Source: Mobula hypostoma (taxonomy: Eukaryota). From it: 64,000 nucleotides of DNA. The stretch spans positions 1,054,001-1,118,000 of the forward strand of contig NC_086097.1 in NCBI RefSeq assembly GCF_963921235.1. The letters run 5' to 3'. Below the pieces are notes generated by a model, which made no database searches, was not told the DNA's origin, and saw only the letters and a list, made by a program, of their open reading frames with translations. Position 1 is the first letter of the stretch, and every line of letters starts with the position of its first letter. A program made the position numbers and the translations under genes. Of the stretch, positions 13,774 to 58,875 are shown in pieces.

Positions 13774-13920
<147 letters not shown>

Positions 13921-19065: not shown

Positions 19066-19151
19066 TGCATCTACAGAGGAATAAACAGACAATGTTTTTG
19101 GTTGAGACCCTTCAACTGGATTCATGGTATCACTTATCAAGCCAGGCCTAC

Positions 19152-19224
19152 CTGCAGTTGTCCCTTGGTCAAGTCTCGTATTTATCAAGCATGCAATGAA
19201 CTTGTTGTCCACCTGACTAAGGAC
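19152..19224 (-). CDS. MLH3: MLH3 coding exon (human exon 6 equivalent), 73 nt: VLSQVDNKFIACLINTRLDQGTTA(G)
   Basis: Acceptor gtgttttttag, donor gtaggc, phase 0/1; QVDNKFI marks the start of the MutL C-terminal domain; 126-nt intron from the previous exon. Confidence 0.96.
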
Positions 19225-19350
19225 CTAAAAAACACAGATATTACAGAGCTATAGCAAGGTTCAGGGATAATCTGAGGAAATGTCTCCACAGTTCCCTGAT
19301 TTATTAAATGTATGGCACTTACCCAAATTACCTCTTATCCCTGCTCTCAC

Positions 19351-19455
19351 CTGCATTGAACTGATCATGTCCTTTGTAAAACGGTAGGGATACAATACAT
19401 TGTGAATCTTCACTGCCAAATTGTCAGCTTGCTCACTGCTAACATCAACAGCAAC
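19351..19455 (-). CDS. MLH3: MLH3 coding exon (human exon 5 equivalent), 105 nt: VAVDVSSEQADNLAVKIHNVLYPYRFTKDMISSMQ
   Basis: Acceptor attccag, donor gtgaga, phase 0/0; strongly conserved MLH3 peptide. Confidence 0.96.
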
Positions 19456-39600: not shown

Positions 39601-39752
39601 ACACAATTTGGACTGGTAAGGCTGGAGAAGATTCCAGAAATGTGGAGAATAAAGATTACAGAGAGATTTGAAAATAAGGATGATTTTAAAATTAAGCCAG
39701 GTAGGGGCAGGTAATGGTGATTATACAACACCCCACAAGCAACAAGACTTAC

Positions 39753-39832
39753 CTCTGGAGGTCGGAAAAAGACTGGATTCCTCCACTCCAGGAATAAAGA
39801 ACGCAATGACTCACTTGACCCCAGCTGAGCAT
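39753..39832 (-). CDS. MLH3: MLH3 coding exon (human exon 4 equivalent), 80 nt: (D)AQLGSSESLRSLFLEWRNPVFFRPPE
   Basis: Acceptor gtttgaacag, donor gtaagt, phase 1/0; matches MLH3 SESLxSLFxEWxNPVF. Confidence 0.93.
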
Positions 39833-39931
39833 CTGTTCAAACAGTACAAACCGACATTGTTCCTTTTACCAAAATGCATTATCATACATTTCCTAACACT
39901 GTTACTACCCCTCCACCTATCGTCATATCAT

Positions 39932-46049: not shown

Positions 46050-46360
46050 TTAGAAACATAGAAAAGCTACAGCACATATGGGCCCTTTGGCTCACAAAGT
46101 TGTGCCGAACATGTCCCTACCTTAGAAATTACTAGGCTTACCCATAGCCCTCTATTTTTCTAAGCTCCATGTACCTATCCAAAAGTCTCTTAAAAGACCC
46201 TAACGTATCCACCTCCACCACCGTTGCCGGCAGCCCATTCCACGCACTCACCACTCTCTGCATAAAAAACTTACCCCTGACATCTTCTCTGTACCTACAC
46301 CCCAGCACCTTAAACCTGTGTCCTCTTGTGGCAACTATTCAGCCCTGGGAAAAAGCCTAT
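46050..46360 (-). mobile_element. CR1 3' end (same family as 6320-7047)
   Basis: Reverse complement resembles 6750-7047; tail agaaacatagaaa. Confidence 0.85.
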
Positions 46361-46401
46361 ACTGTAATACTATAACAGGACAGGTGGGAAATCACACTCA
46401 C

Positions 46402-46515
46402 CTCTTCCATCACCAAGCCCTTCATCAGCTTTGCCTTCCTGTCTTTCTTCTCGTGACCGAGGCAAGAATGGGATCAGGTTTTCACTGCGGAACGGGTAGC
46501 ATCGGTATGTGACAC
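46402..46515 (-). CDS. MLH3: MLH3 coding exon (human exon 3 equivalent), 114 nt: (G)VTYRCYPFRSENLIPFLPRSREERQEGKADEGLGDGR
   Basis: Acceptor ctttcttgttag, donor gtgagt, phase 1/1 continues the frame; resembles vertebrate MLH3 YRCxPFRSxLxLPFLPR. Confidence 0.93.
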
Positions 46516-46689
46516 CTAACAAGAAAGCAGAAAGCTTAAACCCGCGTGCAGAGGCAGAAGCTGATCACAGTTCCTTATTTCCTTTGACACGGGAAGGTAT
46601 TTCAACCCATCAATTCTAGAATGATTTGCAGAATAATCCTTACAAAGAAAATTTTCCCTGACACTCTAAACCCTGTATTCAGTACTTTG

Positions 46690-47215
46690 GTTCTCTAAAT
46701 CAATATACTGAGTATAGGAGTTGGGGTATTATATTGAAATTGTATAAGACTATGCTGTAGCCCACTTTAGAGTATTTTGTCCAGTTTTGGTCACTTCCCT
46801 CTGTTAATAAGATTGAAAGAGTGCAGAGCGAGAATGTTCCTGGGGCTTGAGGCCCCAAGTTACAGGGAAAGGTTGAGCAGGTTCAGACTTTATTCCCTGG
46901 AGTGGAGGAAAAAGAGGGGAGATTTGACAGAGGGGTATAAAATTATGAGCGATATAGAGAGGGTAAATGCAAGTAGGCTTTCTCTACTGAAGTTGGTTGA
47001 GACTAGAATAAGAGATCATGGGTTAAAGGTGAAAGGAGAAATATTTAAGGGGAACATAAAGGGAAACTTCTTCACTCAAAGGGTGGTAAAAGTGTGGAAT
47101 GACCTTCCAGTGGAAGTTTGACTTCAACATTTAAGAAAATATTCTAATAAGTATATGGATAGGAGAGATACAGACGGGCCAAAGGTTGTTTCTGTGCTGT
47201 AGTGTTCTATGGCTC
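46690..47215 (+). mobile_element. Old CR1 3' fragment
   Basis: SYRERLSRFRLYSLE, FKGNIKGNFFTQRVV. Confidence 0.75.
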
Positions 47216-47869
47216 CATGATACCCATTCTCTTCACATTCCCCATCAATTTCCCCAGATTCTAACAGTCACCTACATACGAGAGGCAACTTACAGTTGCC
47301 AAGCAACTTGCACAAATGTGCTAGCGAGGGCGTGCTTAGATGAATGTGTGGCTGAGGATTTGATGCAGGGGGCAGTGATTCAGGTTCTTATATCATTAGG
47401 CTGTCTTCTGAGGCAGAGGAGACCTGTACAATTAGGACAAGTTGTCTTTATATTGATAAACAATGACTCCAGATTGTCAGCACAGCCTTGTGCATGGTAA
47501 GTCATCTCACACACATAACACCCGGTTAAGATTTTTACTGATATGGCGTAACTATTTCATTTTAGCAGTTCTGTAACAGCAGTCTGTTCTGCTTTTTATA
47601 TGTTTGGTTTTGAGCTAAAGATAAGGGGCTATGTTGTTCAACTTAGGAATGCTGTGTCAGGCAATCAAGATGGTGGAATTGGAAAAGGTTCCAGAGAATG
47701 TTGGGTGGAGAGGTTTTCAGTGATGGACACTGGTGTGGGTAGAGGACTTTTTGGTGGGAACTGGGAGAAGACAAGAGGGAAGATGGCAAAAGATGCCATC
47801 CCTGTTGCACAAGGTGCTTTGTGCAGATGAACAGCTTCAAAGGAGAAAGGACCAATCCTCCCATGGGGA

Positions 47870-48785
47870 AACAGACACAAAATGCTGGAGGAGCTCAGCA
47901 GGCCAGGCAGCATCTATGGAAAAAAGTACAGTCGACATTTCGGGCCAAAACCCTTCGGCAGGACTCCATGCCAAACCAGTTGAACTGCTTACTCCTATTG
48001 ACCTGCACTGCCACCATAGCCCTTCATACTCCTACCATCAATGTACCAAACTTCTCTTAAACGTTGAAACTGCCCTCACATGCACCGCTTGCGCTGGCTC
48101 TCATTCCACACTCTCATAACCCTCTGAGTGAGAAGTTTCCCCTCATGTTCTTATTGCACTTTTCACTCTTAACTCGTGACTTCTAGTTATATTCCCTCCC
48201 AACCTTAGAGGAAAAAGCCTGCTCGCATGTACCCTATCTATGCCCCTCATAATTATGTATACCTCTATCATATCTCCTCTCAATGTTCCAAGGAATAAAG
48301 TACTAACCTATTCAATCTTTCCTTGTAACTCAGTCATCCAAGCCCAGCAACGTTCTTGTAAATTTTCTCTGCATTCTATCAACCTTGTTTACATCTTTCC
48401 TCTAGGTAGGTGACCAAAATTGCAAACAAGATTCCAAATTTGGCCTCACCAACATCGTATACAACTTCAAAATAACATCCCATCTCCTGTACTCAATACT
48501 TTGGTTTATGTGTCAAAAGCTTTCTTTACAACCCTACCTACCTGTGACACAACGTTCAACAAATCATGGATCTGTATTCCCAGATCCCTTTGTTCTACCA
48601 TGTGCCGCACCACACACTGTGTACGACCTACCCTGGTTGGTTCAACACTTTGCATTTGTTTGCATTAAATTCCATTCGTAATTTTTCAGCCTAATTTTCC
48701 AGCCGGTCCAGATCATACTGCAAGCTCTGATAGTCTTCTTCACTGTCCACTACATCACCAATCTTGGTGTCATCTGTAAATTAAC
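47870..48785 (-). mobile_element. PLE terminal fragment (47870-47965) followed by an old CR1 3' fragment
   Basis: Similarity to other copies in the window. Confidence 0.75.
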
Positions 48786-49046
48786 CCACGGGACCACAGA
48801 CCCACAGACCCAAGGTTGTTAATGCCTGGTTTAGAGGGACGAGGGCCAAATGGGAATGGCTCAGGTTGGGAGGTTGGCCTGGTTTCCATGGTGTATAACT
48901 CTATAAATGGCCAGATGGCAAATCACACTCTGGGTATGGATCAGTTGAGCTGAAGTGCCTGTTTCTGTGTTTATGGCTCATTTTAATTATCACAGAATTA
49001 CCAAGGCATTCATTATCAAAGTTCAGCACCAAGCCTCAAGGTGAGA

Positions 49047-51342
49047 TAGAAACCATAGAAACTACAGCACAGAAACAGGCCCTTTGGCCCTTCTTGGCTG
49101 TGCCGAACCATTTTCTGCCTAGTCCCACTGACCTGCACACGGACCATATCCCTCCATACACCTCCCATCCATGTATCTGTCCAATTTATTCTTAAATGTT
49201 AAAAAAGAACCCGCATTTACCACCTCGTCTGGCAGCTCATTCCACACTCCCACCACTCTCTGTGTGAAGAAGCCCCCACTAATGTTCCCTTTAAACTTTT
49301 CCCCCCTCACCCTTAACCCATGTCCTCTGGTTTTTTTTCTCCCCTTGCCTCAGTGGAAAAGCCTGCTTGCATTCACTCTATCTATACCCATCATAATTTT
49401 ATACACCCCTATCAAATCTCCCCTCATTCTTCTACGCTCCAGGGAATAAAGTCCTAACCTATTCAACCCTTCTCTGTAACTGAGTTTCTCAAGTCCCGGC
49501 AACATCCTTGTAAACCTTCTCTGCACTCTTTCAACCTTATTTATATCCTTCCTGTAATTTGGTGACCAAAACTGAACACAATACTCCAGATTCGGCCTCA
49601 CCAATGCCTTATACAACCTCATCATAACATTCCAGCTCTTATACTCAATACTACAATTAATAAAGGCCAATGTACCAAAAGCTCTCTTTACGACCTTATA
49701 TACCTGTGACGACACTTTTAGGGAATTTTGTATCTGTATTCCCAGATCCCTCTGTTCCACTGCACTCCTCAGTGCCTTACCATTAACCCTGTATGTTCTA
49801 CCTTGGTTTGTCCTTCCAATGTGCAATACCTCACACTTGTCAGTATTAAACTCCATCTGCCATTTTTCAGCCCATTTTTCCAGCTGGTGCAAGTCCCTCT
49901 ACAGGCTCTGAAAACCTTCCTCACTGTCTACTACACCTCCAATCTTTGTATCATCAGCAAACTTGCTGATCCAATTTACCACATTATCATCCAGATCATT
50001 GATATAGATGACAAATAACAATGGACCCAGCACTGATCCCTGTGGCACACCACTAGTCACAGGCCTCCACTCAGAGAAGCAATTCTCTACCACCACTCTC
50101 TGGCTTCTTCCATCGAGCCAATGTCTAATCCAATTTACCACCTCTCCATGTATACCTAGCGACTGAATTTTCCTAACTAACCTCCCATGCAGGACCTTGT
50201 CAAAGGCCTTACTGAAGTCCATGTAGACAACATCCACTGCCTTCCCTTCATCCACTTTCCTGGTAACCCCTCCTCAAAAAACTCCAACAGATTGGTCAAA
50301 CATGACCTACCACGCACAAAGCCATGTTGACTCTCCCTAATAAGCCCCTGTCTACCCAAATACTTGTAAATTCTGTCTCTTAGTACTCCCTCCAATAACT
50401 TACCTACTACTGACGTTAAACTCACCGGCCTATAATTTCCCGGATTACTTTTCGATCCTTTTTTAAACAACGGAACAACATGAGCCACTCTCCAATCCTC
50501 CGGCACTTCACCCGGAGACAGCGACATTTTAAATATTTCTGCCAGGGCCCCCGCAATTTCAACATTAGTCTCCTTCAAGGTCCGAAGGAACACCCTGTCA
50601 GGTCCCGGGGATTTATCCACTTTAATTTTCCTCAAGACAGCAAGCACCTCCTCCTTTTCAATCTGTACAGTTGCCATGGTCTCACTACTTGATTCCCTCA
50701 ATTCCATAGATTTCATGCCAGCTTCCTTAGTAAATACAGACGCAAAACACCTATTTAAGATCTCCCCCATTTCCTTTGGTTCCGCACAAAGCCGACCACT
50801 CTGATCTTCAAGAGGACCAATTTTATCCCTTACAATCCTTTTGCTCTTAATATACTTGTAAAAGCTCTTTGGATTATCCTTCACTTTGACTGCCAAGGCA
50901 ACCTCATGTCTTCTTTTTGCCCTCCTGATTTCTTTCTTAAGTATTTTCTTGCACTTCTTATACTCAAGCACCTGATTTACCCCGTTTCCTATACATTTCA
51001 TACAACTCCCTCTTCTTCTTTATCAGAGTTGCAATATCCCTTGAGAACCAAGGTTCCTTATTCCTATTCAATTTGCCTTTAATCCTGACAGGAACATACA
51101 AACTCTGCACTCTCAAAATTTCTCCTTTGAAGGCTTCCCACCTACAGATCACATCTTTGCCAGAGAACAATCTGTCCCAATCCACGCTTTTTAGATCCTT
51201 TCTCATTTCTTCAAATTTGGCCTTCTTCCAGTTCAGAACCTCAACCCTAGGACCAGATCTATCCTTGTTCATGATCAAATTGAAACTAATGGCATTATGA
51301 TCACTGGAACCAAAGTGCTCCCCTACACAGACTTCTGTCACT
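49047..51342 (-). mobile_element. 5'-truncated CR1, relatively young
   Basis: EHFGSSDHNAISF, KSPGPD, YMDFSKAFDKV, KFADDTK; tail tttctatggtttctat. Confidence 0.93.
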
Positions 51343-52132
51343 TGGGCAGATTATCAAATCTTGGTTTAAGGGTAGGTTGTAATGATTCTTAAAGGTGGAA
51401 GGAAAGGTAGAATGTCTCAGCCATTACTGCAAGAGCCACTAAACTCGGGGTTGGGCAGAAGGTAAAGTCAGAGCACCAATTTCTTATAAAGTTGTACATC
51501 TTGACATCGGCAGATGGACAGCAGGTATCCAAGGATGAAGTGTCCAACACCAGAGGGCATACATTTGAGATGGGAAAAGATAAGTTCAAAGGAGAAATGC
51601 AGGGCAAGTTGTTGTCTTTTTTTAAAAAAACACTGAAAGTAGTGGGGCGGGTGCCTGGAAAGTATTACCGGGGTTGATGATGGAGGCAAATATGATACGG
51701 GTATTCAAGAGGCTCTTTAATAGACACATTAATGTACAAGAAATAGAGGATATGGACTGAATGAAATAGTTTAATTGGGCATTTGATTATTTCATTCAAC
51801 ACATGGGCTGAAGGGTCTGTTCACTTGCTGCTCTGTTGGACCATAAGACACAGGAGAATTAGACCAGTCAGCCTCTCGATTCTGCTTCTATAGTATTTTC
51901 CTGCCTTCTCCCCATAACCTTTGAAGTTCCATTCTATATTTTATCTCTACAAGGTCATGCAGGGATCTGTAAACAAGAGCGAAAACTGATCAAATCTTGG
52001 TACTGCTTATTTGTACAATGAAAGCTCTCAGAAACTAATGTGATTAAAACAAGATAATTTGTTATTACCTAATAGGTTGATTTTTCTTCCTGTGTAGAAA
52101 GAGATACCATTGTATTTCTTTAAAACACTCAC

Positions 52133-55100
52133 CAGTCTTCATGAGGACGTTAACTGCCATAGTTGTGAAGTCTTTCGTGCAGGCAGCATGTGTCTGAGAC
52201 TCTGGTGCAAGTTCATAGCTGCTCACTCCAGTCACACTGTTTACATACACCGTCTTCCCCAGAGATCCGTCAAAATACTGCAGCCATTGTGAAGAAAAAC
52301 CTTTCAAAGTATTGACACCTTGACGGGTGCCCACACCAACATCTGCTTCAGCAGCTCCTGGTACTGTGGGAATCCATGAAGGGTCAAATTCCTTACTGCT
52401 GGCCACAGCATCATCCTGTTGGCTTAAGTGCTCTTCAATTGTTTCATCTGTTTGGGGTTGGTCTCCAGGGTGCAGCTCAGGCTGTGAAACTGCTCCATCA
52501 ACTGCCCTTTCCTCAGTTGTAGCACGAGACAATTCCTCTGAATTAGACTTTTCATTAATCATAGCAAGGTTGCATATATTTCCAGCACCTGTACAACTTC
52601 CCTCTCCACCAACTCCCGCACAGTTATCAGAGTTTGCTTCAGCTCCTGAGAGCTGTGGTTCTGGAGATAAACAGTGTGGAGATGCATGTTCCAGCTCCGG
52701 AAGCCTCTCTAGGCTCTGGAAAGGTGAAATACAGTCTGCAAAACTCCTTGAATTGCACTCCCAACTCTTCTCTCCTTGTCCAAGGTATTTTAATCTGGAC
52801 AATTTTGCAGCCAAGGTTTTTGGAAGCCCCTTGGAAACAGGGGTAATGTTTTTGTTTTGTGAATAAGTAGCTTGTGCAATAAGACTGGGCTGCACTTGGG
52901 ATATGTGTCCAGCTATTGACCTAGAGCCACAAGTATGCAAATTCCTTTGGAAGCCAACAGACTGGCTGTGCAGTAAACTCTCACTGCAGACATTAGCTCC
53001 AAAGTCTGGGCATCTTGCACCTACATTCTGGTTCAAATTGTCTGCTTCTTTAATTACCGTGGCATCCTCTGGTATCGATTTCATGGCTAGACTACCATCG
53101 CCATGTCGAGTGACCTCAGTATGTTGGGAAGAGTTGCTTCCATCCTGACCACTGGCCCTCCCATATTCTCTTCTAAATGCATCCAGCGAAGCAGTTATCA
53201 GAGACATACTTAGCTTGCTGCGGAATCTAGCTTGACAGGAGATAGGTTCACAATTGGCAACTTTTCTGCACTTGGAATTAACATGATCTTTCAGTGACAT
53301 AATCTTCCCAGGTGTCATCACTGATTCAGTGAGGCTCCCAGACTGATTATGATACTGGGAAGTACTCTGAACTTTCTGACAAAGCCTGTTGGATCTTCGG
53401 GGTTCGGCCTTCCCACATTCCCTAGTGTCACTCAAGTGCATATTGCCCCCAGCCATAAGCCGAGTACATCCCCTTTTCAATCTCTCATTAATATCCCAGG
53501 CACTGACTGGGCCTAAGTGAAAGGTACGTCCCCTCTCTGTATCGTTTCCACGTTCGAGGTCAGAACCTTTCATTTTCATAGGGATCACATGGGTTATAAG
53601 ACCTGTGACACCAAGTTCCACTCCCTGACTCTCCTTGTGTGTCTGTTTTCCCGAGAGCTCCTTTCGCCCTGTCTGCAGTCCACTAACCTCCCCTTCTGTT
53701 GTCTGCACCTCCTCTTGAGGTGAGACACTGCTACCTGATGAGCCCTCACTCTCATAAGCAACAGCAATCTGATAAATTCCATCTCCTTTTGTGAGCACCT
53801 GCTCTCTGCTGGGCTGCACCAGCTTCATTGGCTGTGTCTCAGGGCTATCTGATGTACTCAGGCCGCTGAGGGAACTGCTGTCTCCTGACTCTTTCCACAG
53901 AGACTTGTTGCAGGCAGTTGTCCGCTGACCAGCAATGTCTAAAATGGGTTTTGGAGCTTCAGTAGAGTGTAGCGCAATGCCTGAATGTTCCGAGACTGGT
54001 TCTTCATCCTCAGCACCCAACACCCCAACCTTCTCAATTGTTGCAAGCCCCTGATACACAGCATTTTCCCTAGAGGTTTCAGGTAGTACTGCCTGCCTAT
54101 AAACAGATTTGGACTGGACTGCAGCCATTTCATGTGAGAACACAGGTTTTGAGCTGAGAAGAGGTGACTGGGGATGTTCCTGTTCCTCTAAAGGCTCCAG
54201 TAGCAGTTTCTCCTGTAGCAGGAAGGCATGGACTCCCTCCTCCAAGCAGCTCAGCAGCAGGTCCCAGGAGCTGAACTCCAGCAAGGTGCGACCAGTCTCC
54301 CAGCAGGCATCATACTGCCTATGGTCACACCTGACATTGATGATATAAACAGGGTGGAGATCAGGGCTTCCACGGGACCCAGTAGAGCATCCTGACCTAC
54401 ATATCAGGCTGCTTCGCCTGATCAGCAAATCCAGTTGCACATGTATACGGGTTTTTAGCACCAGTCGCCCATTGACAAACACCTGCCGCTGTGCCTTGGT
54501 ATGGTGGCCCTGTCGGCTAATGAAACCGCTGATATGGAAACAGTCATTTGAGTGCTGAACAGGGCCAAGAGCTGCTGCCTTCTGTGTACCGTAGATCTGA
54601 GCAAAGCGAGCCGGCAAGCTGCTCGCTTTCGGCAGCCTGACTACAAGCGAGCCTCCAGCTGTGGAAGAGGCTTCGTTCCGCAAGGTGAAGGAGACTCCAG
54701 GATGCAGAAGACTCAGGGCTTGAACTCTGAGACGGATCTGCTCCCACTCCAGGGTTCGGATCATACGGCGTCGCCTCACTGGCAGTCGGTAAAAGAGATT
54801 GCATACAGTGACAGTGGTGCCGGGGCTGGGCCTGGCTACCTCGGCCCTGTACACCTGCTGGGCCTGTCCATTGCGGAACAACTTGACCCATGTCTGGCTG
54901 CCACCACCTCGTGGCCTGCTCACTATCTCCAGCAGACCCGACAAGTGTGCAATGCTGGCCAGTGCCTCACCACGACACCCAGGCCCCACTTCAGGCTCCT
55001 CCTCCAATCCTTCTCCAGGGCCCTCTCCACCCCCGAGTTCTTCTCCCTGTCCACTCCCGGGATTCTCTTCCTCTGTAGAACCCCCGGAACCCCCTCCCTG

Positions 55101-55436
55101 TCCATCCCAGGGGCAGTCTGGCCGTGTATTCCAGGGAACCCCACCCTGCCGGGCCCCAGGCCTTTCCCCAGACCCAATGGCGCGGCTACTGTGGTAGCGC
55201 GCTCCCGCCAGCACCAGCGCCGCGCGCTCCAGCCCCACGCCGTTATCTGCCACCTGCACGCGCCCGATATCTGCGTTAACGCGAGCCGCCACGCAACCGC
55301 AGCCGGCTGCCAGGCTGTTCAGCAGCAATTCTTCCAGGCAGTGGGCGAGCGACGGCACTTTCACTGCCGAACGAAGTCCGTCCTGTACGGTCACCGACAG
55401 CGAGCGCAGCTTCTGCGGCGGCATTTCCTTATCCAT
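52133..55436 (-). CDS. MLH3: MLH3 large first coding exon (GHKL ATPase domain, transducer domain, long linker); equivalent to human exon 2
   Basis: 1127-aa ORF with MutL N-terminal motifs (LRSAVKVPSLAHCLEELLLNS, VQVADNGVG, RGEALASIA, GTTVTVCNLFYRLPVRR, VFVNGRLV) and the MLH3-type WLQYFDGSLGKTVYVNSVTG segment. The ORF-track start at 55448 is GTG; the first ATG is at 55436. The exon ends at ...ATGAAGACTG|GTGAGT (donor 52132-52127, phase 1). Confidence 0.95.
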
Positions 55437-55620
55437 GCGACCCGACACCAGAACCAGAGCCAGGCCGCCTCCAGCCCCCTAGGCCCCGTTACCGTAGCAA
55501 CCGGAACCGCCCTCGACGCAGGCGCTTGCGCCGCACTGCGGGCGCCGCGAGGACTGCAGGAAATGTGAGGGGAGGGGAGGGCAGGGCGGGAGGGTCGAGT
55601 CGGCTGGTGCTGTGGAGGGG
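55150..55620 (-). promoter_or_regulatory. CpG island / probable MLH3 promoter with an RFX X-box (GTTACCGTAGCAAC, 55488-55501), NRF1-like CGCAGGCGCTTGCGC (~55517-55531) and a GC box (GGGCGGG ~55584-55590)
   Basis: The most CpG-dense stretch of the window, overlapping the start codon; motif matches read directly from the sequence. Confidence 0.75.
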
Positions 55621-55918
55621 GAAGCTGTCTGGGTGGTATTGAGTGAATCTCCCTCATAACTGGGAGAGAGAATGGCTCATAATAGTATGTTAATGAGGTA
55701 AACCAGGCTCCTGATGGGAGATACAGTGTGTTAGACCACCAGACATAGGTCATTTGGTCCATTGAATCTGATCTGCCTTTTCATCATGACTGATTTATTT
55801 TCTTTCTCAACCCCATTTTCCTGCCTTGTCCCCAGAACCTTTGATATCCTGACTAATCAAGAACCTATCAATCTCCAGTTTAAATATACTGAAAATCAAA
55901 TTGTTTAATTATCAGTTA

Positions 55919-56585
55919 CAGACATTCCACCCTGCAAAAACTCATTTCAGGGAGGTAGCACCATCAATTTGCTAGAGACTCTTGGAACTTATGGGGGAGG
56001 TGGGATGTTTGCAATAGAGTAGCTCCTTAGCAGCTAGCCAGCTAGTTTAAATAACGTTAGCTATACTAATGAACGAATGACACCTGTTAAACTCACCTCA
56101 ACATGTCTTTTACAGTCTTAACCCACCATAGGCAATAGAAAAGTCACTGTTACAAACCGCAGCAAGCAACACTGTCATTATTTTTTTTTACCCCCTAGGC
56201 AGGGGTACACTTTAGGGTAGGCAGGGGTGACGTATGTTTTATATTAAGCAACACACATCAAAGTTGCTGGTGAACGCAGCAGGCCAAGCAGCATCTATAG
56301 GAAGAGGCGCAGTCGACGTTTCAGGCCGAGACCCTTTTTGGAACACTCTGCCATGGCGTGCGCATGCTCTCTCACTCGCGCTCTCTCGTCATTTTCGCTT
56401 GCTTTCTCTCGCTCGCGCGCTCTCACTTGCTTACTCTCTCTCTCGTGGTCGCTCTCTTGCTTTCTCTCTCTGGCTCGCTCTCAAAAAAATTGATTTCCGT
56501 GATATTGTATATAATTTGCGGGCATCAGGGAGCCACCATTGATATAAAGGAGACTCCGGAACTTCCGGCAGGGGTGGGATGTCTG
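55919..56585. mobile_element. Non-autonomous DNA transposon (MITE) with ~17-bp TIRs CAGACATYCCACCC(C)TGC; contains a PLE fragment (~56247-56335) and a (TCTCGC)n-like microsatellite
   Basis: Left cagacattccaccctgc at 55919, right gcaggggtgggatgtctg ending at 56585; subterminal direct repeat gagact..ggaactt...gtgggatgt; TSD unclear. Confidence 0.7.
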
Positions 56586-56802: not shown

Positions 56803-58875
56803 TAGTCCGTGAGCCAGGACCCCAAATTTGGGCCACCTGTACCATCTGGGGGGAATAATTCTTATAGTGATTTTTGGCAAGGTATACACCCATAGTGCTA
56901 GAAAATATGTGATAGTATTGCAGTGATGGTAGCTTGCATGATCACCGTCATGCTATAAGAACCATGATCCTATGGTGCTTTGCCTATGATAAGATGAATT
57001 ATGCCAGGTACCTGTCCCCTTACTTTGCTCAGATGATGAACCTCCCAGAGAAGAATCCTTCTCTGTCTGAGGCCTTCAAGACAGGCCAATTCTCAGTGCA
57101 GCTGTCAAGTAACAACCTCTTTGGGCAGATCCCTGTGGACCAGGCTATTGAAGCCACAGTGAACAAAGACACACAGACTCCTGGAGGCACATCACGGTTC
57201 AGCCTGAATGCTGGAGCCATCAAGCGTTACTACGTAAGAGCTGAGCACGCAGTGCATTCCTGGGACAGTTAAGGGAGATGGTGCAAGGCAACAAGTCAGA
57301 GCTTTGTCACATGGAGCTGCAGCAGCCAAAAATCCAGAAAGATGAGGAGGCAGTTTCAGCAGTGGTTAGCCTCATACATGGTCAACCCATTTGCAGAGAA
57401 GCAGGACCTCATTAGCATCTCTATGGCAAAGGCAGCCCCCAAGGACATTGCCTCTAACCTGATGAAGGCATATGAGATTGGTGAGCAAAGCTATGCAGCC
57501 TTCAAGGATGAGAGACTAGAGGAAGACCCACCAACAAAGAAATTCCATGACCCAATGAAAACCAACAAGCTGAAAACATTCAGTAAATGTGTAAGAAGAG
57601 AGAAGTGAAATCAAATGGGAGGGTGATCATCTTGAAAGCAGACAGGTCTTTGTTTAGATGCATCATAGTGATGGCACAAGGGCTCAGTCTACATATGGAG
57701 GATATCCTTTCTCGTCCCCTTGGACCGTTGTCCTGGGCCCTGTCCACACCAGAAGGATTGCTGAGAAAGACAAATAAAGCTACTTTAGCCACAACCTTGC
57801 AGAAAAATGTAGCAGTAGAAGAGCAACTCCCAGGAAACTCTGCTAGAGTGGTTGATGGAATGAACTTGGTCCAAAGAGTGAAAGGTGATCAAGTTACTTT
57901 CAGAGATGTTGCCACGACAATTCTGGGTATAGCTCTGAGGGAAGGCAGTCAGAGTAGCAGAATAGATGTTGTGTTTGACACATACAAGGAGAACTCTATC
58001 AAGAATAGTGAAAGGTCTCTACGGGGTGAAGATACTGGTCATGAGTTGCAAGGTATCACATGCACACAGATGGTGAGGCAGTGGAGGAGCTTCCTGACCA
58101 AAGTCAGTAACAAAAATAGTCTCATCAGCTTCATAGTCCATGAATGGAAGAAGGCGGAGTACAGAGCAAAGCTACAGGAGAAGATTCTGTATGCAATTGT
58201 GAATGACAAATGTTACAGAATCACATCTCAAGACAGTGAGGAGGTGTCAGCTCTTCAGTGTCAACAAAAAGAAGCAGATGGCTGCCTACTTCTCCATGCT
58301 GCCCATGCCACGAGAGGGATACCAATCTGTAGTGATCTGCTCAGAAGACACAGATGCCTTTATCATGTCTTTAGCATTTTGTGACAAGATTGAGGCCCCA
58401 TTGTTCCAGAAGTGTGGGACTAGAGAACCCGTACAAGGCTTGTAGCATCAGGAAAGTTGCTGCCACTGTTGGCATAGAGGTTTGTAGGGCTCTCTTCGGG
58501 TTGCACGCATATACAGGATGTGACACTGTAAGCGCTTTTGCAGACAAAGGGAAGACAAGTGCCCTAAAACTTCTGACCAGCAACAGGGAAACTCAGGACA
58601 CATTCTTAGAGTTGGGTCAGGAATGGGACCTCTCCCCAGAACTGATGGACAAACTGGAGGCACTTACATGTCTCCTGTATGCCCCCAAAGCATCGACCAC
58701 TGATGTTAATATGGAATATATACAAAAAGTGATTACTTATTTGAAGTAATAAAGCTGCCACTGGTGCAATGCTATCGCATATTTTCTAACTCTAGAGATG
58801 TATACCTTGCCAAAAATCACTACAAGCATTATTCCCCTCAGATGGTACTGACCAACCCCACTGGCTCACAGGCTA
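56803..58875 (+). mobile_element. Academ (AcademX-type) DNA transposon, internally deleted; decayed transposase C-terminal part plus XPG/FEN1-like nuclease domain
   Basis: TAG...CTA termini, ~125-bp imperfect TIRs, AAT TSD (56800-56802 and 58876-58878); NYARY, DQAIEATVNKD, VDGM, RIDVVFDTY, EAD..LLLHA, SEDTD, TGCDTVSAF..KGK. Confidence 0.85.

Follow-up and report, generated by a model that had tools for sequence, protein, structure and literature searches.

The window, a 64,000-nucleotide stretch of the Mobula hypostoma genome (contig NC_086097.1, positions 1,054,001 to 1,118,000 of the forward strand), carries on its minus strand the gene for MLH3, which acts in meiotic crossover and mismatch repair and whose ATP lid is a loop that normally closes over ATP. 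In the MLH3 of this ray the lid is greatly lengthened. An open reading frame (ORF) of 1137 codons was found at 52065-55478, and its product, read from the ATG at 55436, was used as the query protein (P0001). The first coding exon finishes at base 52133, before a consensus donor read from the sequence (ACTG/GTGAGT). Based on a protein search with residues 1-420, the top matches were proteins named Mlh3: that of Mobula birostris showed 98% identity over these residues (E 1e-274) and that of Hemitrygon akajei 93%, followed by other rays, skates and sharks, with birds, mammals, reptiles, amphibians, coelacanth and Polypterus at 37-50%. The search returned 294 matches at E <= 0.001, and the comparisons given below use the 120 listed matches and the window protein, 121 proteins in all. 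The 104 non-chondrichthyan matches are, where named, from tetrapods, coelacanth and bichir (Polypterus); teleost, lamprey and named holocephalan MLH3 fall outside the 120 listed. The DQHA(X)2E(X)4E metal-binding motif of the MutLgamma endonuclease subunit was present in a downstream exon, at 13881-13804. A single MLH3 locus was found in the genome by a TIGR00585 profile search, a strict first pass which weak matches may escape. The features of the gene are collected in Table 1.

Table 1. Features of the MLH3 gene and its lid segment in the window
Feature	Position	Strand	Basis or remark
CpG-island-like promoter and first 255 nt of coding sequence	55181..55650	.	CpG o/e (observed/expected) 0.96, G+C 0.67
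MLH3 first coding exon	52133..55436	-	ORF and translation; ATG 55436 to splice donor
GHKL motif I, EELLLNSLAA	55305..55334	-	catalytic Glu E36 and Mg-binding Asn N40 kept; Ala43 replaces Asp
GHKL motif II, DNGVG	55233..55247	-	D64, N65, G66 and G68 invariant in alignment A1
RYHSSR, N-terminal base of lid	55182..55199	-	SSR replaces TSK
Lid segment, 67 residues (net +54), Gly/Pro/Glu-rich, predicted disordered	54981..55181	-	translation, alignment, AlphaFold2, RNA contigs
Decayed internal duplication, 33-nt copies	55029-55061 and 55080-55112	-	73% identity, 51 nt apart
Canonical G-quadruplex motif, coding strand, inside insert	55081..55108	-	regex scan; overlaps 11-mer copy 55094-55104
G2 box / motif III, GCRGEAL	54960..54980	-	Cys replaces Phe invariant in other matches
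Motif IV, GTTV	54810..54821	-	conserved
ETGRT, transducer domain	54285..54299	-	aligned with EPAKT or DPAKT of others; Lys to Arg
MLH3 exon 2	46403..46516	-	tblastn; acceptor read from sequence
Further MLH3 exon	39744..39833	-	
Further MLH3 exon	about 19150..19440	-	
MLH3 exon with intact endonuclease motif	13804..13881	-	tblastn

Translation gave 67 in-frame residues free of stops (AIGSGERPG...EPEVGP, 201 nt) between RYHSSR and GCRGEAL, residue 86 beginning at 55181 and residue 152 finishing at 54981. Counted from RYH to the G2 box, the lid comprises 70 residues in the window as against 16 in Chinchilla and Latimeria, an excess of 54. In phmmer alignments to solved structures the query jumps from residue 85/86 to 150/153, where MLH1 (4p7a) passes from 85 to 99 and E. 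coli MutL from 82 to 92; on the genome, TIGR00585 matched at model positions 20-76 and 91-352 with 204 nt between. Both place the gap between GHKL motif II and the G2 box, that is, in the ATP lid of MLH3. The 70-residue lid contains 21 Gly, 8 Pro, 14 Asp plus Glu and 4 Lys plus Arg, giving a net charge of -10. The 11-mer TGGACAGGGAG is present twice (0.04 expected; none of 100 shuffles gave two copies), and Tandem Repeats Finder reported a period of 24 with 2.2 copies in the insert. On the coding strand the insert is 46% G, and its CpG observed/expected ratio is 0.28. The G-quadruplex motif consists of four runs of at least three G with loops of 7, 1 and 4, and lies on the non-template strand about 330-355 nt downstream of the ATG; across the whole window the minus strand has one other such motif and the plus strand six. 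The minus strand is open in each of its three frames over this G+C-rich stretch, so the lack of stops is by itself no evidence of coding; that evidence comes from the frame shared with about 970 downstream codons, from RNA contigs and from orthologues. The insert is a genuine coding sequence, an expansion rich in Gly, Pro and Glu and predicted to be disordered, which sits at the tip of the ATP lid in the MLH3 GHKL domain. The original prediction, which had announced an acidic, disordered insertion of about 54 residues with internal near-repeats in the lid of MLH3, was thus right as to gene, place, size, repeats and charge, and the predicted structure described below agrees with it on disorder.

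Retention of the segment in messenger RNA was investigated with four sequencing runs from three studies, mapped as assembled contigs on window positions 46300-56300; the library type of these runs was a guess ('RNA?'), and their RNA nature was inferred from the splice behaviour of the contigs alone. Each run yielded a long contig aligned down to exactly 52130 and followed by 442-1314 letters lying elsewhere. Since the intron and exon 2 both begin with GTG, a spliced transcript aligns three bases beyond the donor, to 52130; exon 2 was also covered, with depths at 46474 equal to the contig depths, and together these observations identify the contigs as spliced RNA. The contigs end upstream at 55465-55524. 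Record 32 of run X3 spans 52130-55482 in one piece, with 45 differences and 3 gap letters, and keeps the segment; records 7 and 8 of X1 (52130-55103 and 55084-55465) show 0 differences, and records 15 and 16 of X17 (54526-55056 and 55061-55492) cover the segment save 4 nt. The X2 contigs leave 54930-55114 uncovered and give evidence neither way. No joint removing 54981-55181 was present among the contig joints listed for the four runs, contigs being blind to rare isoforms.

These data bear on the reading that the segment is an artefact, whether from a small intron that escaped recognition (exitron), from faulty assembly or from a pseudogene. Such a reading draws on the G+C-rich sequence being open in all three frames and on the GT and AG dinucleotides inside the segment, although the one in-frame GT..AG pair within the insert, read by eye, would span just 72 nt. 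The intron version was rejected because contigs spliced at the exon-1 donor keep the segment, in runs of all three studies, as the original prediction had expected of the mature transcript. Assembly error, which that prediction had named as a way in which it could fail, is ruled out by a segment of equal length in the independent named assembly and gene model of Mobula birostris (66/67 identical residues; Hemitrygon akajei, 54/67) and by the contiguity of the RNA contigs. The exon is moreover open for 1137 codons with the endonuclease motif intact downstream, and one MLH3 locus was found. The artefact reading is largely refuted, leaving room for a minor isoform alone, and we give it very little credence.

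Lid length was compared across vertebrates as the spacing between the DNG.G Asp and the first of the Gly residues in the G2 box, which could be measured in 119 of the 121 proteins; P0015, without its N-terminus, and P0016, a Narcine bancroftii model without a G2 box, were left out of these counts. All 104 non-chondrichthyan matches had one fixed spacing of 35, so that a long lid, as had been supposed, is not general in vertebrate MLH3. Among the 15 cartilaginous-fish sequences the spacing was 29-37 in seven (Heterodontus, Cetorhinus, Mustelus, Pristiophorus, Heptranchias, Scyliorhinus and one further sequence) and 75-126 in eight (the window, Mobula, Hemitrygon, Pristis, Leucoraja, two Chiloscyllium and Hemiscyllium). 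Expressed as lid residues the range is 10-107, with short forms of 10-18 in six shark species of five other orders and the one further sequence, and long forms of 56-107 in the window, in all four informative batoid species besides it and in three hemiscylliid (bamboo/epaulette) sharks. Based on taxonomy look-ups, the long lids belong to three batoid orders (Leucoraja being presumably a skate) and one shark family, Hemiscylliidae, a distribution which by parsimony suggests at least two expansions. Gly and Pro make up 40-69% of the cartilaginous-fish lids, at the place where the other matches have DLEN..FY, and the Pristis lid contains clear, fresh tandem units. The insertion had been taken as private to the lineage of this ray; this did not hold, for it is rather one state of a hypervariable lid whose canonical residues are lost in every sampled cartilaginous fish.

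Repeats were also seen elsewhere in these proteins. In Heptranchias perlo (P0013) a stretch of about 15 residues is repeated four times at the N-terminus and the linker holds a 10-residue unit repeated more than 10 times, and the linkers of the hemiscylliids (P0007, P0009, P0011) carry GESQGEQ-type coding repeats. Cartilaginous-fish MLH3 seems generally prone to in-frame repeat expansion. The Narcine bancroftii Mlh3 model (P0016) breaks off about 20 residues into the lid and picks up again at RRYRMVRTLEWE, without G2 box and GTTV, which is either a gene-model or assembly problem in the G-rich tract or a real deletion.

The ATPase motifs around the lid are altered in part. Both the catalytic Glu and the Mg-binding Asn of motif I were found (E36, N40), as were motif II and GTTV. 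The motif-I Asp of NS.DA, present in 104/104 of the other matches, was found in 0/16 cartilaginous-fish sequences, which have Ala (9), Glu (5) or Gln (2) in its place. TSK was likewise present in 104/104 others versus 0/16, with Arg at the Lys position in seven sequences including all six batoid ones, and GFRGEA in 104/104 versus 0/15 measured. In place of the usual pattern of TSK, about 13 residues and GFRGEAL, the window has SSR, 67 residues and GCRGEAL. The PAK of the transducer domain, whose Lys we take to be the gamma-phosphate sensor (K307 of MutL), occurs in 103/104 others (it was not found in P0095), and its Lys is Arg in 17/17 cartilaginous-fish sequences. Kept in the cartilaginous fishes are the catalytic Glu (15/16), the Asn, DNG.G, the Arg-Gly of the G2 box and GTTV. 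Two sharks depart further: in Scyliorhinus canicula (P0014, a low-quality model) Gln stands at the position of the catalytic Glu and the G2 box reads GERGQA, and in Mustelus asterias (P0010) the G2 box reads GGHGEA, with His at the Arg. If real, these changes would mean that the MLH3 ATP site has eroded further in carcharhiniform sharks.

Profile scores reflect this divergence. Pfam HATPase_c scored 18.5 bits (cut-off 26.4), DNA_mis_repair 23.5 (cut-off 26) and TIGR00585, in a six-frame match of one exon, 104 (cut-off 180); by these scores the MutL domain is recognisable but diverged. Among precomputed annotations, PF13589 was assigned to none of the 15 chondrichthyan-type matches (P0002-P0016) and PF02518 to that of Cetorhinus only, and P0017 carries both.

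The lids of the paralogues in the same genome were read in turn. TIGR00585 recovered the lid exons of MLH1 (C1, near 111.49 Mb; best solved relative 4p7a, E 1e-15) and of two PMS-type genes (C18 and C36; best solved relative human PMS2), and a PF01119 search gave two paralogue exons only. Each of the three has TSK, 13 residues and GFRGE, aligning without gaps to human MLH1 or PMS2; NS.DA is readable in both PMS-type genes and SLDA in MLH1. Since three paralogues of one genome have canonical lids, the change is specific to MLH3. Four loci from a PF13589 genome search were discarded, being without MutL motifs. A PMS2-like lid exon with TSK ... GFRGES stands isolated on another contig (L020, G000:C78:32325191-32325268); it differs from the C36 gene by substitutions and may be a pseudogene or an additional copy derived from PMS2.

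The structure of the N-terminal domain was predicted with AlphaFold2 from a 41-sequence alignment. The core blocks had predicted local distance difference test (pLDDT) values of 83-94, and residues 81-154 fell below 50 without secondary structure. Foldseek matched the model to the N-terminal domains of MutL, MLH1 and PMS2 (E 7e-16 to 1e-11, template modelling score 0.5-0.7), identifying a GHKL (Bergerat) fold with transducer, and phmmer against the Protein Data Bank gave E 2e-11. Identity between the window and Hemitrygon was 95-97% in the folded N-terminal domain, 81% in the insert and 86% in the linker; the corresponding values were 81-91%, 55% and 61% for Pristis and 71-79%, 31% and 42% for Leucoraja. 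The insert diverges about as fast as the disordered linker or slightly faster, and much faster than the folded core. Between cartilaginous fishes and other vertebrates the N-terminal domain is about 49% identical and the C-terminal domain about 61%, as compared with 61% and 62% between Polypterus and other bony vertebrates. Gly, Ala, Arg and Pro together account for 36% versus 21% of the N-terminal domain, without such a shift in the C-terminal domain. Batoids and sharks share 78% identity in each domain, which argues that the remodelled N-terminal domain has been under purifying selection since.

In the GHKL family the stretch from motif II to the G2 box is the ATP lid, and in proteins such as MutL, MLH1 and PMS2 it is reported to become ordered on nucleotide binding and to contribute to N-terminal dimerisation. 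Low-complexity loop insertions are common in eukaryotic proteins. A review describes the lid in general terms (PMC12733681). Literature searches on MLH3 in elasmobranchs, sharks and cartilaginous fish, with subscription journals outside their coverage, found nothing on a lid expansion among the papers listed, judged by title and abstract, and those on MLH3 with the ATP lid returned PMS2 work only. In a study of human MutLgamma, MLH3 E28A affected the nuclease in manganese far more mildly than MLH1 E34A (bioRxiv 10.1101/2020.02.12.946293). In yeast, mlh3 R96A and G97A were intermediate and K83A was wild type (PMC3538346). From the distance of 16 between K80 and R96, spacing arithmetic makes K80 of the latter protein the TSK lysine and puts K83 in the lid tip, three residues into the lid, which by analogy may mean that the tip is tolerant of change.

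The explanation that we consider probable, if by no wide measure of confidence, is that the segment is a disordered loop under weak constraint, born of slippage and most likely tolerated as a spacer, which could persist since constraint on the MLH3 lid had relaxed in cartilaginous fishes. Comparison suggests that in cartilaginous-fish MLH3 the canonical lid residues would have been lost and the lid length would have ceased to be fixed while the N-terminal domain shifted to amino acids with G+C-rich codons. Replication slippage or tandem duplication would then have lengthened a G-rich low-complexity tract in this weakly constrained loop, in batoids and hemiscylliid sharks at the least, and the tract would afterwards have drifted in length and sequence. 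The window repeats, the Pristis tandem units, the shark linker repeats and the 46% G of the coding strand are the signature of slippage. As the loop is predicted to project from the surface, it is proposed to leave the folded core and the main catalytic residues intact. At most, the expansion might loosen ATP-gated closure of the lid of the MLH3 subunit, and MLH1, whose lid is canonical in this genome, would probably carry most of the nucleotide switch of MutLgamma.

Several points weigh against a mere spacer. A mobulid-like ray and a dasyatid share 81% identity in the insert, which does not amount to free drift; E/D-V-G-P-G before the G2 box and at least one Trp recur across batoids; and the net charge is negative in 8/8 long lids (-2 to -10). 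With these, some selection on the loop is conceivable. In the human work, maximal cleavage by the full ensemble in magnesium needs all four ATPase motifs of MutSgamma and MutLgamma (bioRxiv 10.1101/2020.02.12.946293), and in yeast mlh3-N35A and mlh3-K80E are null (PMC3538346), so that the MLH3 ATP site as a whole is not dispensable in the organisms assayed (yeast, human). The RNA support, moreover, consists of assembled contigs, which a minor spliced isoform could escape. The same identity, charge, Trp residues and E/D-V-G-P-G end, together with the presence of the long lid in frame in 4/4 informative batoid species besides the window and in three hemiscylliid sharks, are what would be expected if the segment were a selected functional module, an acidic disordered arm beside the nucleotide pocket, the N-terminal dimer and the DNA groove that would serve MutLgamma as an autoinhibitory mimic of DNA, as a surface for docking or as a gate under phospho-regulation. 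Such an arm is hard to reconcile with identities of 31-55% between batoid orders, with lengths from 56 to 107 residues, with the 10-18-residue lids of the sharks of other orders and the further sequence, and with a divergence slightly above that of the disordered linker in 3/3 comparisons; its G/E/W/R-rich composition is the expected yield of a coding strand with 46% G. A regulatory surface had been suggested as an outcome of the insertion; this linker-like divergence argues against one that is finely tuned, and we regard a selected module as unlikely.

A further reading differs from the tolerated loop in degree and overlaps with it: the N-terminal domain might be a degenerate (pseudo-)ATPase, whose lid no longer binds or encloses ATP and which is kept for dimerisation, DNA binding or partner contacts, the insertion being a symptom of the loss. 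The absence of the motif-I Asp, of TSK and of the Phe of GFRGEAL, each in 16/16 sequences, points this way, as do the Gly- and Pro-rich lids in place of DLEN..FY, the catshark (low-quality model) and Mustelus substitutions, the subthreshold HATPase_c score and the sparse PF13589 and PF02518 annotation. In yeast the null mlh3-K80E would affect the TSK lysine itself. Set against this are the retained catalytic Glu (15/16), Mg-binding Asn, DNG.G, G2 Arg-Gly and GTTV, the Arg that rays have at both the TSK and the PAK lysine positions, and the equal conservation of the two domains between batoids and sharks, which indicates strong purifying selection after the remodelling. A pseudo-ATPase is accordingly judged somewhat more doubtful than a selected module. 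Rather improbable, in our estimate, is a reading in which the lid of cartilaginous-fish MLH3 would no longer be a lid, nucleotide gating would have been handed to MLH1, and rays and bamboo sharks would have put the freed loop to new use as a disordered regulatory arm that is acidic and bears Trp. If true, this arm would control how DNA or partners reach the N-terminal clamp, either by mimicking DNA in an autoinhibitory way or by offering a docking site.

Intron 1 (47636-51000) and the region upstream of the promoter (55652-56300) showed a summed contig depth of up to about 150,000 in all four runs, made up of many short contigs at 90-95% identity, many of the joints being odd; MLH3 is flanked here by interspersed repeats that are high in copy number and transcribed. 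Upstream of the gene, open frames of 111-265 codons on the plus strand at 56916-58384 (e.g. 57587-58384) have the look of mobile-element ORFs.

As a comparative sequence observation, the finding would offer a natural experiment: in an old vertebrate clade MLH3 alone appears with a degenerate, ballooned lid, the rest of the gene being conserved. It may bear on the weight of the ATP switch of the MLH3 subunit in crossover resolution, would provide natural lid variants of 10 to 107 residues ready for biochemical comparison, and may illustrate how a G-rich, slippage-prone 5' exon remodels a loop of a catalytic site.

The protein of the window shares its fold and the order of its motifs with E. coli MutL LN40, human MLH1 and human PMS2 (1b63, 4p7a and 1h7s, respectively). 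The lids of MutL, MLH1 and PMS2 measure about 10-14 residues from the Lys to the G2 box, whereas 74 residues are predicted to be unstructured in the window MLH3. The MLH1 and the two PMS-type genes of the same genome belong to the same family, but their lids are canonical and that of MLH3 is not. With the MLH3 of tetrapods, coelacanth and bichir the window MLH3 has in common the same huge first coding exon, an N-terminus of GHKL and transducer domains, a long disordered linker and the C-terminal endonuclease motif, and differs in a lid longer by 54 residues and in the replacement of the Asp of NS.DA, TSK and GFRGEA by Ala, SSR and GCRGEA. The closest likeness is to other cartilaginous-fish MLH3 (Mobula birostris, Hemitrygon akajei, Pristis pectinata, Leucoraja erinacea, Chiloscyllium and Hemiscyllium), with which the degenerate motifs and the Gly/Pro-rich lid are shared, whereas the sequence and length of the lid interior vary between orders.

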